Shown here: in pieces, positions 3,860 through 8,930 of the stretch
Layout of the letters: every line of letters starts with the position of its first letter
Numbering within the stretch: the stretch's first letter is position 1
IMG/VR virus record: IMGVR_UViG_643348547_000013
From: a virus
Lineage: Duplodnaviria > Heunggongvirae > Uroviricota > Caudoviricetes
DNA length: 46,955 nucleotides
Strand: one strand, 5' to 3'
Made by a program: the position numbers and the translations under genes
Notes under the pieces: generated by a model
The model's database searches: none
What the model was told of the DNA's origin: nothing
The model's input: the letters and a program-made list of their open reading frames with translations, nothing else

Positions 3860-4734
3860 ACCCCTACCTCTTCGAATTTCAATACCAATTGATCACCCCA
3901 GATTTCACATGACTCTGAACACGAGCCGGTATCGAATCGCCTGGCCTGTACCATCGCCTGATACAAATTTCTGTAGTCGCTGTTGGCAGACATTCTGGCA
4001 ATTCCGTCAAGCGTCAGGTGACCACGGTACATAACGTCTTTACCTGTTCTGCGATGACCATCCCTGACGTGTTTGCCTGTAACCAGCTCATTAAAAACTC
4101 GCATCAGACCAGGTTCGTCTTTACATGCAAGCCCCAGCTTTTGCGTTGACTTTTTGATGCAGAAAACACAGTTCCCGAGATGCTCCGGGATTTGCAAATC
4201 AAAAGGTTGTTTTCGCCACCACCGGATAACATCCGACTTATCAAAATCTGACAGTTCGGCAAGATACCGGACGCCCGATTTCGGTTTCAGCCTACGGGGT
4301 TCGTCTGCACGAATACCCAGCCATGTGATGTAATTACCTCGCCCGAAATGGTTATCGCAGTATTTCGTGAAAGGGATGAGTTTTAGCCTGTCAGTACAGA
4401 ACGCGCCGCCGATGTATGGCGTGCCGTACTTTTTAACCATGTCCATAAACGGTTTAAGTACCGACATTCGCGTCTGAATATCCTTTGGCTCCCATTCTGT
4501 ATAACCATTTGGCTGCCCAAGCTCAGGATTGATATCGACCTGCAACACAGTTAGTGGTATGCCCCAGAACTTCACAACCTCCCGAATAAAGCGGTATGTC
4601 AGCGGATGTTCGCAACCGGTATCCATAAAGATGTAGCAGACGTTATTGACAGCCTTTCTTTGTTCTTCCATCAGGTGAACAAGATATGCAGATGTTCTCC
4701 CGCCGGAAAAACTAACTACATGAGTTATGCACAT
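3856..4734 (-). CDS. PAPS-reductase-like (PP-loop ATP pyrophosphatase family) protein
   Basis: N-terminal SFSGGRTS PP-loop motif; GGAG RBS 9 nt upstream of ATG at 4734. Confidence 0.8.
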   Translation of the reverse strand: MCITHVVSFSGGRTSAYLVHLMEEQRKAVNNVCYIFMDTGCEHPLTYRFIREVVKFWGIPLTVLQVDINPELGQPNGYTEWEPKDIQTRMSVLKPFMDMVKKYGTPYIGGAFCTDRLKLIPFTKYCDNHFGRGNYITWLGIRADEPRRLKPKSGVRYLAELSDFDKSDVIRWWRKQPFDLQIPEHLGNCVFCIKKSTQKLGLACKDEPGLMRVFNELVTGKHVRDGHRRTGKDVMYRGHLTLDGIARMSANSDYRNLYQAMVQARRFDTGSCSESCEIWGDQLVLKFEEVGV

Positions 4735-4755: not shown

Positions 4756-5250
4756 TTAAAACGTTCCATAAACATCCCGTAGGCATGTCCTGGTGCCAGT
4801 GGAATCACTTTGAACATCGATACCTTCCAGTACAGGCCAGAAAGAGCCATCATCAAGCCCGAGATCGCGGCGTTCGGTTGCCAGCATAATGAGATCGGCA
4901 TATTTCACTGGCGTGCTCATAACAGGAGGTAACCCGTATTTCTCACGGATTACGGCGTCTATTTTTTCTTCCATCTGTTTATAGTCAGGAAGAAGGCGTT
5001 TCAGTGGCGCGGGGATGTCCTGACAATACGCTTCTGTTGCATCATGCATTAACGCTTCAAAAGCAAACTCCTCCGGAACCAGTTTGCTGCAAAGCACCGC
5101 ATGTTGGGCGACGCTGTAGAAGTGTGAAAGATGACCGGCAAAGCGACAGATATTTGAAAGGGAAACTGCGATATCGTTAATCACGATGTCGTCTTTATTT
5201 ATCCTGTCATAATAAAAATGCTTCCCGGAAAAAGTTTTAATAAATGACAT
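4756..5250 (-). CDS. yfdR: HD-domain phosphohydrolase (YfdR-like 5'-deoxynucleotidase family)
   Basis: H..H and HD motifs (HFYSVAQHAVL ... MHDATEAY); start set at internal Met (MSFIKTF) preceded by GGAG; the longer annotated start has no RBS. Confidence 0.7.
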   Translation of the reverse strand: MSFIKTFSGKHFYYDRINKDDIVINDIAVSLSNICRFAGHLSHFYSVAQHAVLCSKLVPEEFAFEALMHDATEAYCQDIPAPLKRLLPDYKQMEEKIDAVIREKYGLPPVMSTPVKYADLIMLATERRDLGLDDGSFWPVLEGIDVQSDSTGTRTCLRDVYGTF

Positions 5251-5378: not shown

Positions 5379-6203
5379 TCAGGCGGTGAAAGTACCAATA
5401 AAGGTTTCTACTTTGCTGTCTTTGAATTTTTCAACAAGCAGATCACGAAATTCGTTAGCCATTTCTTCCTGCACTGCTTCCAGCTGAATAATGCGCAGAA
5501 CCAGTACAGGGCGATCACCAGTGATAATGCTGAGGCGTAATTTAAACGGACGTTCTTTCAGGCCTTCAAACGGAACGCATTTAAACTCAAATGCTACTGG
5601 CATAATGTCTTTGGTTTTCGCTTCGACAGACTCCATCAGAGAGCGTTTGCCGCTGAAGTCATTGTCTTCAAAATCAGCGGTCTGGTTTGCTTCAATCGTG
5701 ATTTTACGGACCGCCGCAGCCGCTTTTGTTGCCTGAATGGCGTCACCATTAGCATCAAAGCCCACAAGGTAGTCGGCCCAGTCTTCAATCCATTCTGCCA
5801 GTGACTTCTGGGAGTTACGCTCGCCGTTAACAGACAACAGGGCAGAGAACGGTGCTGTCTTTTTCAGTTTGAGAGTGGCGGTGTTATCTGCGTGACCTGG
5901 TTCATCAATAGTACCCAGGTTAAGCACACTGACGGCTCGCATATTATCAGCATCGATAAAGCAGCGGGTGCCTTCATCTGCAAGATCTTTAGAATAACGG
6001 GTAAAGTCATCGATGCTGGCAGTGGAAAGCGCACCACGGAAACGGAAGCGATTTAAATTAAATTTTTCCAGATCATGAATGCGGAAATTCTCAGGCAATG
6101 CCACAGCATCGGCACCAATCTTACTGATAATTTCATTAACACCCTGAGCAGAAATAAGGGCATGGATTTGATTAATTGCGGTTGCGTCTAAGTTCTGAGA
6201 CAT
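5379..6203 (-). CDS. yfdQ: YfdQ-like protein (DUF2303 family), CPS-53-type early gene
   Basis: 274-aa ORF, length and recalled sequence match the CPS-53 prophage YfdQ. Confidence 0.75.
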
Positions 6204-6268
6204 AATAAGTCCTCACTATATAAAGATATTCAGTGATGAGATAAATAATCAGTTTATTAAAAACGATA

Positions 6269-6631
6269 TTAACGACCTGCTGCGCGGAGTTTTCCGTCAG
6301 GTTCACCGGCAAGAGTCAGTAATTGTCCCTGGTCTTCCTGCAGAATAGTCAGGCGACCACCGCGATTGACATACATCGGCGTTTCGGTGGTGTCTTCTTC
6401 GGAAATTTTCCCGCGGTTAGTCGGGCGAACATATGAGAGTTTGTGTTTGATTTTTACACGGTTCTCATCAAACGGTTCGATTTCCAGGTTGAGCGAGACC
6501 TTACCTTTGGTTTTCGTGTTCATCACACCGGAAGCGACTTCACTGAGAACAGCGCCGATTTTGGTTTCAAATACGCCGCCGTCCAGCTCCCCGATAAATG
6601 CCTGCACATCAGTACTGCGTTCGCTAGCCAT
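6269..6631 (-). CDS. yfdP: YfdP-like protein
   Basis: 120-aa product from Met (MASERSTDV) preceded by GAGGAG; the longer ORF-track version (to 6817) is an unsupported N-terminal extension. Confidence 0.7.
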   Translation of the reverse strand: MASERSTDVQAFIGELDGGVFETKIGAVLSEVASGVMNTKTKGKVSLNLEIEPFDENRVKIKHKLSYVRPTNRGKISEEDTTETPMYVNRGGRLTILQEDQGQLLTLAGEPDGKLRAAGR

Positions 6632-7308
6632 TTTGCTGCTCCTCATCATATCGACCCCGCAAGGTCGGTTGGTTTCTCCACAAAACAGAGAAGAACACCA
6701 GCGGTGGCAGCCGCCCGGATGGATTGGGTTATGAGCCCGTCGTCCGGTGATGCCCTTCTCTGTTTTGTAAAAAGAGCGGTACCAGCCGGAAGCAAGTGTA
6801 CAAACTGGTACCGCCAAAGCAGTGGCTGTTGTGGTGACCGGTGCTGATCTCCGGCTTGCGGTTATTTCAGACTCTCACGGGCGTTTAATTGCCCCGCCGA
6901 ACAGCTCTTTTCCGCAATAGCTGCAATGTCTTTCGCGCATCAGCCTGCGCATTCACCACAACGCTGAGAGCATTGCCGGTGTCCGAATCGAACGGACCTT
7001 TTCCCTGCCCAACCCTCCCATCTGAATGGGACTGTCTGGAATTGAACCAGCACTTATGCCTTGCTCGTCAATGCTCTCATCGTTGCGTCCTGGTCTCTTC
7101 CCAAGCGTCAAACCGAATCGCCACGCTGGTTAGGCGTCTTATCAGCATCCTCATTGACTTGCACATTCCGGCTACCTGGTTTGTTTGCCCGAGCAAGGAG
7201 TGGATTATCCCCTTTAACGTCCCCAGACCGCTAACGACGCATGTGCCATACGCCGTGTTACAACCAAATTTTGTTTGAATCTTGCCTGCCTCATGTTTCT
7301 TTTGGATA

Positions 7309-7337
7309 CATTATGTATCTCAAGGGTACATTGTCAA
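7309..7337 (-). promoter_or_regulatory. candidate leftward early promoter (pL-like)
   Basis: On the minus strand TTGACA (plus 7332-7337), 17-nt spacer, CATAAT (plus 7309-7314); overlaps the 15-bp perfect palindrome GATACATTATGTATC (7304-7318). Confidence 0.4.
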
Positions 7338-7341
7338 GTAT

Positions 7342-7363
7342 AAAAAAACCTGCCGAAGCAGGT
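7342..7363 (-). terminator. rho-independent terminator downstream of the repressor gene
   Basis: Hairpin ACCTGC-CGAA-GCAGGT followed by a U7 run on the minus strand, just past the repressor stop. Confidence 0.5.
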
Positions 7364-7376
7364 TCATAAATATTGA

Positions 7377-8051
7377 TTAGGCCTTTATTGTGTATCTTCT
7401 TGGTTTTCCCGAGAAAATCACTGTACCAATTATAGAGCAATTACCGTTAATCTTAATGTAAGGCTCAGGCCAGTTTGGGTTTAATGCTTTGAGATAACGC
7501 TGTGTTCCATCTTCTATCAACCGCTTGAAGGTGGTTTCGCCTGAATCGTGCATCAATGCAATAACGTCGTCACCGTGGCAGGCAGGGACTTCAGGATCAA
7601 CAAAAATCATGTCTCCCGGGCGGTACTCATCAATCATTGAATCACCAATCACCCGCAAGATATAAGTCATTTCGCCACAGGGTACAGGGCAGGGATAAGT
7701 TTCTGCTGTGCTCAAATCAACCTCAGAATAGCCAACTTCTTTCCATGCTCCGGCCTGTACCCATGATATGACAGGGACTAACGTTATTTGTTTGTTAGTG
7801 ATTGAAACATCAGGTTTTTTTGTGATGTTCGTGGTCTGGTGTTCTTGATCAAGCCATCCGACAGGCAGGTCGAAACATTTTTCGATGTGCCTTGCCATGC
7901 TGTCACCGATATTTTTAGTAGCACCATCTCCCATAAACCTGCTGGTCTGGGTTGGCTCGCGATCAATCATGGTGGCAAAGGAAGAATTCCCGCCAACACC
8001 ATCTCTCAGTTTTCTGGCGTTAGACCGCCGGATGTCATGGACTGTTTTCAT
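7377..8051 (-). CDS. CI-type phage repressor, LexA/S24 peptidase family
   Basis: 224-aa ORF with C-terminal S24 autopeptidase region (ILRVIGDSM...); divergent from cro-like gene. Confidence 0.85.
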   Translation of the reverse strand: MKTVHDIRRSNARKLRDGVGGNSSFATMIDREPTQTSRFMGDGATKNIGDSMARHIEKCFDLPVGWLDQEHQTTNITKKPDVSITNKQITLVPVISWVQAGAWKEVGYSEVDLSTAETYPCPVPCGEMTYILRVIGDSMIDEYRPGDMIFVDPEVPACHGDDVIALMHDSGETTFKRLIEDGTQRYLKALNPNWPEPYIKINGNCSIIGTVIFSGKPRRYTIKA

Positions 8052-8067
8052 AACGAAATTAAAACCT

Positions 8068-8086
8068 TTGTACCGATAGGGTACAA
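8068..8086. promoter_or_regulatory. operator palindrome in the repressor/cro intergenic region
   Basis: TTGTACC-GATAG-GGTACAA inverted repeat; candidate pR (TTGAAG, 16-nt spacer, TAATAT) lies just downstream. Confidence 0.5.
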
Positions 8087-8141
8087 GTATCTTGAAGGTT
8101 CATCTCAATCATGTAATATGTATATCGGAGGTACATATTGT

Positions 8142-8342
8142 ATGAAAGCGTATTGGGACTCTTTAACCAAAGAACAGCAGGGCGAGTTGGCCGGAAAAGT
8201 TGGCTCAACACCAGGCTATTTACGGCTGGTTTTCAATGGTTATAAAAAAGCCAGTTTTGTGCTGGCTAAAAAACTTGAGCAATGCACGTCAGGTGCAATT
8301 ACGAAATCTGACTTAAGACCGGATATCTATCCGAAAGATTAA
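8142..8342 (+). CDS. Cro-like small DNA-binding regulator
   Basis: 67-aa product from ATG at 8142 with GGAG 12 nt upstream; position and size fit cro. Confidence 0.6.
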   Translation: MKAYWDSLTKEQQGELAGKVGSTPGYLRLVFNGYKKASFVLAKKLEQCTSGAITKSDLRPDIYPKD

Positions 8343-8603
8343 CAGAACACCTTCAATTTTTAACCACAGAACGATGAGGCTAACCGTGGGTAAGCATCAC
8401 TGGAAAGTAGAAAAACAGCCTGAGTGGTACGTGAAAGCTGTCAGAAAAACTATCGCGGCGTTGCCGGGGGGGTACGCTGAAGCTGCTGAGTGGCTAGATG
8501 TAACAGAGAACGCTTTATTCAACCGCCTTCGTGCAGATGGCGATCAGATTGAACCGCCCCGGGAATCCTGGAGACTAAACTTCCTGAGAAAGAGGTAAAC
8601 AGG

Positions 8604-8930
8604 ATGACTAAAAATACTCGTTTTTCCCCCGAAGTCCGTCAACGGGCAGTCCGTATGGTTCTGGAAAGTCAGAGCGAATATGACTCACAATGGGCGACAA
8701 TTTGTTCCATTGCTCCAAAGACTGGCTGTACGCCGGAGACTCTGCGTGTCTGGGTTCGCCAGCATGAGCGGGATACCGGGGGCGGTGATGGAGGGCTCAC
8801 CACCGCTGAACGTCAGCGTCTGAAAGAGCTGGAACGTGAAAATCGTGAACTGCGCCGCAGTAACGATATCCTTCGCCAGGCTTCCGCTTATTTTGCGAAG
8901 GCGGAGTTCGACCGCCTCTGGAAAAAATGA
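8604..8930 (+). CDS. IS629 OrfA (transposase N-terminal HTH protein)
   Basis: 108-aa product [22 protein letters not shown]... recalled as IS629 OrfA; A6 slippery run at its 3' end. Confidence 0.9.

Follow-up and report, generated by a model that had tools for sequence, protein, structure and literature searches.

What fills the long interval between the leftward early promoter of a lambdoid prophage and the first gene of its leftward operon, when no N-like gene is found there? In the lambdoid prophage of IMG/VR virus record IMGVR_UViG_643348547_000013, about 670 nucleotides (nt) separate the inferred transcription start from yfdP, the first leftward gene. The original prediction, drawn from the letters of this record, took the interval (6632-7300) for an untranslated leader and offered three readings of it: a nut-like site, a put-like element for RNA-based antitermination, or a small RNA. 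The window here means the whole 46,955-base stretch of the record; coordinates are positions in it, and all leader modules are read on its minus strand. From the candidate leftward promoter pL, the leader is built of modules A, B (helix P7 with its insert), C, terminator T and D, followed by yfdP (Table 1). Modules A and B together represent an RNA family that covaries strongly, is widespread in unrelated types of phage, and has neither an annotation nor a match in Rfam. We regard the leader as a non-coding RNA locus lying directly after pL, and it is most likely, with moderate confidence on our part, that its product is a processed phage RNA acting in trans. Among the three earlier readings, the small RNA came closest in that a conserved structured RNA is present, but this RNA is large (about 300 nt for A and B, about 530 nt to the terminator) and modular.

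A conserved pseudoknotted RNA core

The structure of module A was derived by hand and comprises six helices, including a pseudoknot. In a first set of 25 representatives, 95% of the alignment cells assigned to helices were paired, against 28-52% in slid controls, and 11 pairs had changed on both sides. With 60 distinct sequences the paired fraction was 96% (28-46% when slid), and 15 of 28 pairs had changed on both sides. The covariation score of the core over these 60 sequences was 0.274, compared with 0.124 +/- 0.006 for shuffled alignments, and none of the 500 shuffles was as good. The divergent copies are the most telling: Klebsiella phage Geezett carries GGUC/GACC in place of the pseudoknot CACC/GGUG, and Kp4866-6 has CAG/CUG instead of CGG/CCG in P2' together with two flipped pairs in helix P1. 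Since the fixed G-U pairs U7-G17 and G4-U20 form on the minus strand only, the structure can be placed on this strand as RNA. Many junction nucleotides of the core are invariant, and module A has no tRNA-like features.

Covariance model R1, applied to the window, gave a single significant match (136 bits, E = 4e-42), at the position of module A. No second copy of module A in the window, the pR operon included, reached significance (next best 9.8 bits, E = 0.17), and no second copy of any other leader module was found in it. The conservation is not that of a protein-coding region, as each reading frame is open in at most 26 of 57 members and the lengths of indels show no bias modulo 3. A check of the structure thus found neither an N-like open reading frame (ORF) nor a lack of conserved structure: there is no conserved ORF, and covariation is strong.

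RNAalifold proposed a long-range pairing of the 5' end with the invariant 19-mer of the core, which was retained merely as a possible alternative conformer: the divergent L007 copy breaks three of its pairs and keeps P1 and P2'. Within this region, GCACAU (7249-7243; part of the P1 loop and the first bases of the P1 3' strand) is complementary to AUGUGC (7166-7161) in the 19-mer, and RNAalifold prefers this pairing over P1. All positions concerned are invariant, so covariation cannot decide between the two, and the pairing may represent a tertiary contact or an alternative conformer.

The whole leader folds better than shuffled sequence (z = -3.3), and two sub-domains do so more strongly, module B with z = -5.3 and module D with z = -6.3. 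Alignments A1 and A2 display long invariant blocks between hairpins that carry compensatory changes.

Helix P7 and the link to tRNA genes

Module B is closed by helix P7, whose insert ranges from about 15 to 270 nt across the family. P7 was found in 37 distinct family members, with 92% of cells paired, eight pairs changed on both sides, 30 further pair types and none of 500 shuffles as good. In Geezett, which lacks P6, the pseudoknot is joined directly to P7, which makes A and B parts of a single RNA.

In the window, the insert contains two T-arm mimics and a hairpin between them. The two T-arm-like stem-loops noticed earlier are indeed there and are conserved across phages: both carry the 7-nt T-loop UUCRAUU, which is conserved in five phages, and both are invariant in Salmonella, Klebsiella and Edwardsiella phages except for the purine at loop position 4. 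The middle hairpin changes in a compensatory manner (UCCCA/UGGGA, UCCUG/CAGGA, CCAGGAUAG/CUAUAUCUGG). This type of insert is kept in SPC32N, Kp4866-6, F1055 and EPP-1, the latter two without module A, and other members carry different inserts, some with perfect T arms (for example locus L104). An apparent likeness of the insert to J11/12 of RNase P (GAGCAAGGC) was set aside.

Module C, which follows P7, adopts a cloverleaf-like minimum-free-energy fold. Its D-arm-like stem covaries (GCCC/GGGC, GCAC/GUGC, GGCGG/CCGCC) under a conserved loop, and in phage SfIV the closing helix, GUUGUGGUG/CACCACAAC, is retained although it encloses another interior. ARAGORN at default settings finds no tRNA genes in the window, and the Rfam tRNA model finds nothing in 6200-7500 at E <= 10. 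Relaxed ARAGORN runs, including the intron and transfer-messenger RNA modes, returned poor artefacts only, among them a 90-nt candidate with a 2-nt anticodon at the 80% threshold. Since tRNA models do not recognise module C, we name it tRNA-like rather than tRNA.

Genuine tRNAs are found in the same place in relatives, and module C sits in the slot of tRNA-Arg(UCU) of epsilon15-like phages. In the epsilon15-like phages SPC32N and phiv142-3, the alignment places the +1 G of this tRNA at window position 6959, which is the final G of P7; tRNA-Arg starts exactly at this G of P7 in those two phages and in 7 of the 43 clusters. In most other members, P7 is followed by GUGGUGAAU and a D-arm-like hairpin, that is, by a tRNA-like 5' half. 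On the other side, the RNA of phage P1 begins 14 nt past tRNA-Ile2, the homologous piece extending to ban, and in Klebsiella phage GZ7 the homologous piece follows tRNA-Arg. Homologous pieces directly abut tRNA genes in three unrelated kinds of phage. That P7 ends precisely where a tRNA, or an element resembling one, begins suggests that the 3' end of the RNA is formed by RNase P.

Terminator T, the boxA-like string and module D

Behind module C lies T, an intrinsic terminator with a predicted fold of -22 kcal/mol, in which a 10-base-pair (bp) GC-rich stem is followed by UCUUUUU. The stems of T differ in Kp4866-6, F1055 and SfIV yet stay complementary, always with C(C)UUUUUAC behind them. A simple terminator scan missed T because its loop exceeds the 8-nt limit of that scan. 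A comparable terminator closes the RNA unit in other members, for example in locus L042.

The boxA-like element of the original prediction coincides with this terminator. Its letters, CGCTCTTTTTACAA at 6778-6765 on the minus strand, are the end of the 3' stem of T plus the U-tract, and they fit the rrn or lambda boxA only with an indel. An ungapped boxA pattern with up to three mismatches matches the window 28 times, against 22 +/- 5 expected, and 6778-6765 is not among the matches. Homologues read GCCCTTTTTACAC, GACCTTTTTACAC or CGTCCTTTTTACAA at this site (also GCCCUUUUUACAC, GACCUUUUUACAC and CGUCCUUUUUACAA); the letters vary because they form the 3' strand of a hairpin whose two strands covary. 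Downstream of 6765 there is no boxB-type hairpin, the sequence running straight into the 5' strand of module D (about 20 bp). A lambda-type nutL, in which the boxA-like CGCUCUUUUUACAA would recruit NusB/S10 with or without some N analogue, could point to the resemblance of the string to the rrn boxA UGCUCUUUAACAA and to its place within the pL transcript. We give it next to no credence. The match requires an indel, boxA-like strings occur at chance level, the letters change between homologues with matching changes on the other strand of the stem, the string is buried in the T hairpin, and there is no boxB, no N-like gene and no second site. At the level of conservation nutL is already refuted, and neither the boxA nor the nut-like site of the original prediction is supported.

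Module D, the hairpin of about 90 nt behind T, carries on one branch CGGGCUCAUAACCC, a 14-nt exact copy of the anticodon stem-loop of Escherichia coli initiator tRNA-fMet, three G-C pairs included, as checked against annotated tRNA-Met genes. This mimic lies about 90 nt upstream of the yfdP start codon. The core of the module, GACGGGCUCAU[A/U]A[C/U]CCAAUCCA, is invariant in four other phages (including Klebsiella and Salmonella phages), and its outer stem covaries. Module D was present in 40 of the 163 fetched loci. In GZ7 the mimic follows tRNA-Arg and is closed by a helix ending in ACCA. T and D together precede yfdP in most E. coli copies and rdgC in F1055, and they occur without module A in SfIV and F1055. 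By analogy with the hairpin in the N leader of lambda, module D is read as a leader element of the first early gene and probably as an RNase III-type site.

Taken together, the T-arm mimics, module C and the fMet anticodon arm could be seen as functionless, decaying remnants of a phage tRNA cluster, pseudogene debris borne by recombination. tRNA-derived features are scattered over B, C and D, real tRNAs fill the same slots in other phages, and the region is mosaic. We consider this explanation very improbable, as invariant blocks of 19 to 30 nt and compensatory helices have been kept over at least five genera at 70-80% overall identity, module A is free of tRNA-like features, and the RNA of Geezett has a dedicated promoter and terminator. 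For A and P7 it is largely refuted.

Distribution and genomic contexts of the family

An exact scan of viral contigs for the 19-mer yielded 120 loci in 43 clusters at 90% identity, and a second, independent motif scan used one genome per species. The RNA is found in ten genera of Enterobacterales: Kosakonia, Phytobacter, Escherichia, Citrobacter, Kluyvera, Klebsiella, Enterobacter, Superficieibacter, Pseudescherichia and Candidatus Erwinia. By BLAST, 3019 of 5426 complete E. coli genomes and 173 phage records contain some part of the 741-nt region, which is a mosaic whose pieces differ in distribution. Module A itself is present in 1828 of these 5426 genomes, 550 of the places being on P1-like plasmids of about 90-100 kb, and all 25 of the records listed lack any annotation beneath it. 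The family spans lambdoid, P1-like, epsilon15-like and virulent Klebsiella phages. In its sporadic and mosaic occurrence the family is reminiscent of accessory or anti-defence genes.

The contexts vary with the type of phage. (i) Repressor-linked copies. As in the window, 18 of the 43 clusters have a co-oriented S24 repressor gene with the RNA shortly behind it, and a Stenotrophomonas phage has the same layout with a helix-turn-helix repressor. (ii) Copies next to tRNA genes. The epsilon15-like unit of RNA, tRNA-Arg and small ORF is flanked by packaging genes that run the other way, and a repressor operator is annotated ahead of it in the epsilon15 record. In phage P1 (locus L006, 2514-2689) the core lies between trnI and ban, within the C1-controlled ban operon, where the record annotates nothing. 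(iii) A stand-alone copy. In Geezett, a virulent Klebsiella myophage, the RNA is antisense between baseplate genes with no co-oriented gene after it; a promoter (TTGACA-17-TAATTA) ends about 7 nt before helix P1, and a GC hairpin with eight U's follows about 520 nt later. In some members a terminator-like hairpin comes right after the core.

Two further loci differ in their layout. Locus L027, a viral contig, carries two tandem cores on its minus strand (3999-4153 and 4806-4958), separated by about 650 nt; the second is divergent (116 bits) and has a terminator-like hairpin after it. SfIV (locus L163, 671-1985) has repressor, terminator and pL as in the window, then a 1.3-kb gap before yfdP, with C, T and D retained; in the gap, A and B are replaced by a short leader with a terminator-like hairpin and by an insert with opposite-strand ORFs.

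The repressor-linked layout invites a different explanation, in which nascent A, perhaps with B, binds its own RNA polymerase and carries it past T and later terminators, as a cis-acting, RNA-only processive antiterminator in place of N. In those 18 clusters, in the Stenotrophomonas phage and, behind the repressor operator, in epsilon15, the RNA is close to the promoter and runs in the direction of the early operon; there is no N-like gene; and a conserved T stands between the RNA and yfdP, with another terminator after yfdQ in phage Ayreon. A put-like mechanism has been speculated for the N-less lambdoid phages of the yfdP/yfdQ/yfdR type (PMC12315714). As a weak lead, the base of helix P1 (A-CGGCG...CGUCG, the G-U pair included) and the following AGCG resemble the base of put stem I and the start of stem II. 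However, neither covariance model nor BLAST detects homology to put, the A9-G35 platform is absent, the window carries a single copy, the pR operon lacking one, and the RNA of Geezett stands alone, without co-oriented downstream genes and with a strong terminator at its end. T and D also precede the first early gene in the two relatives without module A. Since T stands before early genes where A is missing, its read-through cannot depend on A, and A is not the general answer to T. A put-like function in cis is possible but argued against, and we hold this explanation to be unlikely.

The same succession of promoter, conserved pseudoknotted RNA, intrinsic terminator and genes is also the classic order of an attenuator. 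In such a sensing leader, riboswitch- or T-box-like, modules A to C would bind a ligand or a tRNA and decide whether T forms; the many invariant junction nucleotides suggest a binding pocket, and the T-loop hairpins could dock tRNA elbows. But T lies at least 270 nt from the core with variable modules between them, and no alternative antiterminator pairing with the core was found. Members without a downstream gene (Geezett) or without T (phage P1, L070), and T without the core in SfIV and F1055, speak against it as well, and we rate a sensing leader as quite improbable.

Organisation of the locus

Table 1. Features of the leader and its flanks in the 46,955-base window
Feature	Position	Strand	Details
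Repressor gene	7377-8051	-	S24/LexA-type, ymfK-like
Repressor-gene intrinsic terminator	7365-7346	-	GAACCTGCTTCGGCAGGTTT then T run; just upstream of pL
Candidate pL	7337-7310	-	TTGACA 7337-7332, 16-nt spacer, CATAAT 7315-7310; 11/12 consensus matches
Module A, RNA core	7256-7088	-	about 170 nt (family 150-170 nt); covariance model and covariation
P1	7255-7248 with 7242-7235	-	loop GGCAC
P2'	7232-7226 with 19-mer	-	CGG of AGCGGUC with CCG of 19-mer
P2	7226-7223 with 7179-7176	-	CUGG with CCAG
P2a and P3		-	variable helices within module A
Invariant 19-mer	7176-7158	-	GGUAGCCGGAAUGUGCAAG; scan motif GGTAGCCGGAATGTGCAAG
P4	within 7137-7123	-	ACGC/GCGU
Pseudoknot	P4 loop with 7114-7111	-	AACC with GGUU
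P6	7105-7089	-	
Module B	7085-6959	-	P7 closing a variable insert: CAACGAUGAGAGCAUUG 7085-7069 with CAAUGCUCUCAGCGUUG 6975-6959
T-arm mimic 1	7050-7036	-	CTGG-TTCAATT-CCAG
Middle hairpin	7031-7016	-	covarying; between the two T-arm mimics
T-arm mimic 2	6997-6981	-	GTCCG-TTCGATT-CGGAC
Module C, tRNA-like element	6959-6831	-	cloverleaf-like minimum-free-energy fold
Module C acceptor-like helix	6959-6953 with 6837-6831	-	GUGGUGA with UCACCAC
Module C D-arm-like hairpin	6950-6935	-	GCGC-AGGCUGAU-GCGC
Module C central arm and T-position hairpin	6854-6838 (T-position hairpin)	-	T-position hairpin without T-loop sequence
Module T, intrinsic terminator	6814-6767	-	GCGGUACCAG (6814-6805), loop, CUGGUACCGC (6785-6776), UCUUUUUAC (6775-6767)
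Module D, hairpin of about 90 nt	6768-6680	-	ACAAAACAGAGAAGGGCAUCAC (6768-6747) with GUGUUCUUCUCUGUUUUGU (6698-6680)
Initiator anticodon-arm mimic	6739-6726	-	CGGGCUCAUAACCC; on one branch of module D
Small hairpin before yfdP	6667-6652	-	
yfdP Shine-Dalgarno sequence	6644-6639	-	GAGGAG
yfdP start codon	6631-6629	-	ATG

The candidate pL was the top sigma-70 match in a promoter scan of 6100-8400, and judged from its position transcription would start at about 7303. From promoter to terminator the leader measures about 530 nt, and the A and B unit comes to about 220-300 nt. The terminator of the repressor gene, just ahead of pL, carries a terminator annotation in phage Ayreon, and a promoter and operator block like that of the window is also found upstream of yfdP in SfIV. 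After yfdP come yfdQ, yfdR and a PAPS-reductase-like gene, for which RefSeq gives the products YfdP, YfdQ, 5'-deoxynucleotidase and PAPS-reductase-like protein; in Ayreon a further terminator follows yfdQ.

The interval 6632-7300 is non-coding on the minus strand, as the original prediction held, and in a 100% identical copy of the window sequence RefSeq annotates nothing between ymfK and yfdP. A single minus-strand ORF of 60 amino acids or more reaches into the interval (6817-6269), and it is an in-frame extension of yfdP upstream to a TTG start. In phage F1055 the same DNA stands ahead of rdgC, another gene altogether, so that what is conserved is not a protein. The earlier view that there is no N-like gene is borne out: no leader ORF matches a family of known function, and none is conserved. 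The small leader ORFs gave no match to a PHROG family with a known function, and yfdP too matches only PHROGs without an assigned one. Two ORFs over the conserved RNA, 6646-6795 on the minus strand and 6889-7278 on the plus strand, match phrog_33599 and phrog_36251, families whose function is not assigned, and ORFs overlapping the RNA are annotated as hypothetical proteins in mEp460, Ayreon and F1055. Both PHROG families are probably mis-called ORFs over RNA genes, and several of these hypothetical-protein calls are probably artefacts of the same kind.

Elsewhere in the window, an IS3-family insertion sequence occupies about 8551-9860 on the plus strand (ORFs 8604-8930 and 8927-9817, with an ALIL pseudoknot at 8885-9001); judged by its left end, it probably resembles IS629. 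The element interrupts a ymfL-like gene of the rightward early operon, which is intact in the otherwise identical prophage of FDAARGOS_1288, and the prophage of the window may therefore be defective. On the same strand, isrK (64 bits) and C4 antisense RNA (82 bits; 10708-10795) lie side by side at 10607-10795; together they make up, within the pR operon, a region for anti-repressor control of the P1/P7 immI-like or Gifsy type.

A model for a processed RNA acting in trans

A stand-alone gene in Geezett, a terminator behind the RNA, a single copy in the window and the lack of homology to put argue for an RNA gene acting in trans rather than a nut or put site. We propose a model in which RNA polymerase starting at pL first makes A, with its pseudoknotted core, and B, then C, and then meets T. 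A and B would be released as a stable molecule, whose 3' end (...CGUU, between 6960 and 6959) would be cut by RNase P by virtue of the tRNA-Arg or tRNA-like module that in nearly all cases follows P7; in phage P1, maturation of the upstream tRNA-Ile2 would set the 5' end. The RNA would act in trans early in infection or induction, probably on host tRNA, on the translation machinery or on a tRNA-directed defence. yfdP and the rest of the leftward operon would be expressed only upon read-through of T, and the duplex of module D would then probably be a site of RNase III-type processing or of translation control, comparable to the hairpin in the leader of lambda N.

Several observations weigh against this model. 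Cleavage by RNase P at module C is inferred only, C being unrecognised by tRNA models. The position next to pL in 18 of 43 clusters is equally expected of a cis-acting antiterminator, and an early operon that lacks N and has a conserved terminator after pL must have some means of getting past it. As an element of a 5' untranslated region would, the core in locus L070 immediately precedes the ribosome-binding site of a gene. A search of the window for trans targets, confined to antisense matches to the 19-mer with up to three mismatches, came out empty. As for the alignments, four of the six helices in A4 were aligned by fitting to the covariance model, so that the paired fraction given for module A is inflated, and the register of P7 was picked by maximising pairs.

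On a more tentative level, it is conceivable that A and B are the founding member of a new class of phage non-coding RNA, matured by host tRNA-processing enzymes through fused tRNAs or tRNA mimics and acting early on a tRNA-related host process. Candidate roles would be to divert tRNA-cleaving defence nucleases as a decoy, to bind RNase P or the ribosome, or to serve as an RNA-only antiterminator unrelated to put. If the family is indeed unreported, a conserved pseudoknotted RNA has been overlooked in phage P1 (upstream of ban), in Stx2-converting phages, in epsilon15/phiV10-type phages and in a third of complete E. coli genomes. The locus also makes testable the question of how N-less lambdoid phages of the yfdP/yfdQ/yfdR type carry early leftward transcription past a conserved terminator.

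Comparison with known RNA families

The novelty of the family is judged from Rfam 15, RefSeq annotation and a limited full-text search. Rfam 15 has no match in the leader (window at gathering thresholds; 6200-7500 at E <= 10; six homologous loci at E <= 0.5), its matches in the window lying elsewhere, at 8885-10795 (the ALIL frameshift pseudoknot, isrK and C4). No description of the element turned up in the limited full-text search on yfdP and on structured RNAs of lambdoid phages, which did not extend to a catalogue of 10,006 candidate viral structured RNAs. The Pas small RNAs, considered as candidates, belong to the late region and are unrelated.

The put RNA of phage HK022 is the obvious comparison, since it too is an RNA right after pL in an N-less lambdoid phage. 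It occurs as a left and right pair and is not known to be followed by a terminator of its own. By contrast, the RNA described here is present in one copy with a conserved terminator behind it, and has stand-alone copies in virulent phages. The shared 5-bp stem CGGCG/CGUCG with the same G-U pair, followed by AGCG, was judged insufficient for homology. R1 run unfiltered over the pL-nun and pR regions of HK022 gave 5.6 bits at best, and not at putL, and BLASTN with a word size of 7 found no similarity to HK022 put. The put RNA has about 70 nt, forms two stems arranged in a V and needs an A9-G35 pair or platform (PMC9378689). Here, six helices and a pseudoknot occupy 150-170 nt, and the nucleotide after helix P1 is U, C or A and never G, which leaves no A9-G35 platform. 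As a claim of homology, the put-like RNA of the original prediction is thus not upheld.

Other leaders and processed RNAs share single traits with the locus. In the lambda N leader, nutL is followed by an RNase III hairpin upstream of N; both leaders are long and structured from pL to the first gene, and the near-perfect duplex of about 20 bp in module D would be a helix of the RNase III type. The present leader differs in having no conserved boxA or boxB and no N, and lambda has no counterpart of the initiator anticodon arm of D. The CI RNA of P4, the C4 RNA of P1/P7 and the stable RNA species 1 and 2 of T4 are cut from longer early transcripts by tRNA-processing enzymes, and some such phage RNAs come from the leader of a leftward operon. 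CI and C4 RNAs are antisense regulators of 70-90 nt with targets in their own operon, whereas the present RNA has no homology to them and its 19-mer has no target in the window. A formal analogue only is the MALAT1-mascRNA pair, which is eukaryotic and unrelated in sequence; there as here, a tRNA-like element immediately 3' would let RNase P set the 3' end, a processing step that we infer for the phage RNA.

The closest analogues, in lifestyle, appear to be GOLLD and ROOL. These are pseudoknotted RNAs of phages and prophages, often found by tRNA genes and sometimes with tRNAs in a variable linker, and their function is unexplained (PMC12286853). In the family described here, tRNAs likewise abut the RNA, tRNA-like inserts lie inside P7, and a conserved part is combined with a variable one. 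There is no homology between them, and neither the window nor the homologous loci gave a GOLLD or ROOL match in Rfam. GOLLD and ROOL are also longer, at about 580 and more than 800 nt compared with about 220-300 nt, and belong to Firmicutes, rumen or marine hosts rather than Enterobacterales. If the proposed class holds true, the RNA would be the Enterobacterial counterpart of GOLLD and ROOL in genetically tractable phages, and the locus would offer a tractable Enterobacterial model for the association of structured phage RNAs with tRNA islands, as seen for GOLLD, ROOL and the stable RNAs of T4.

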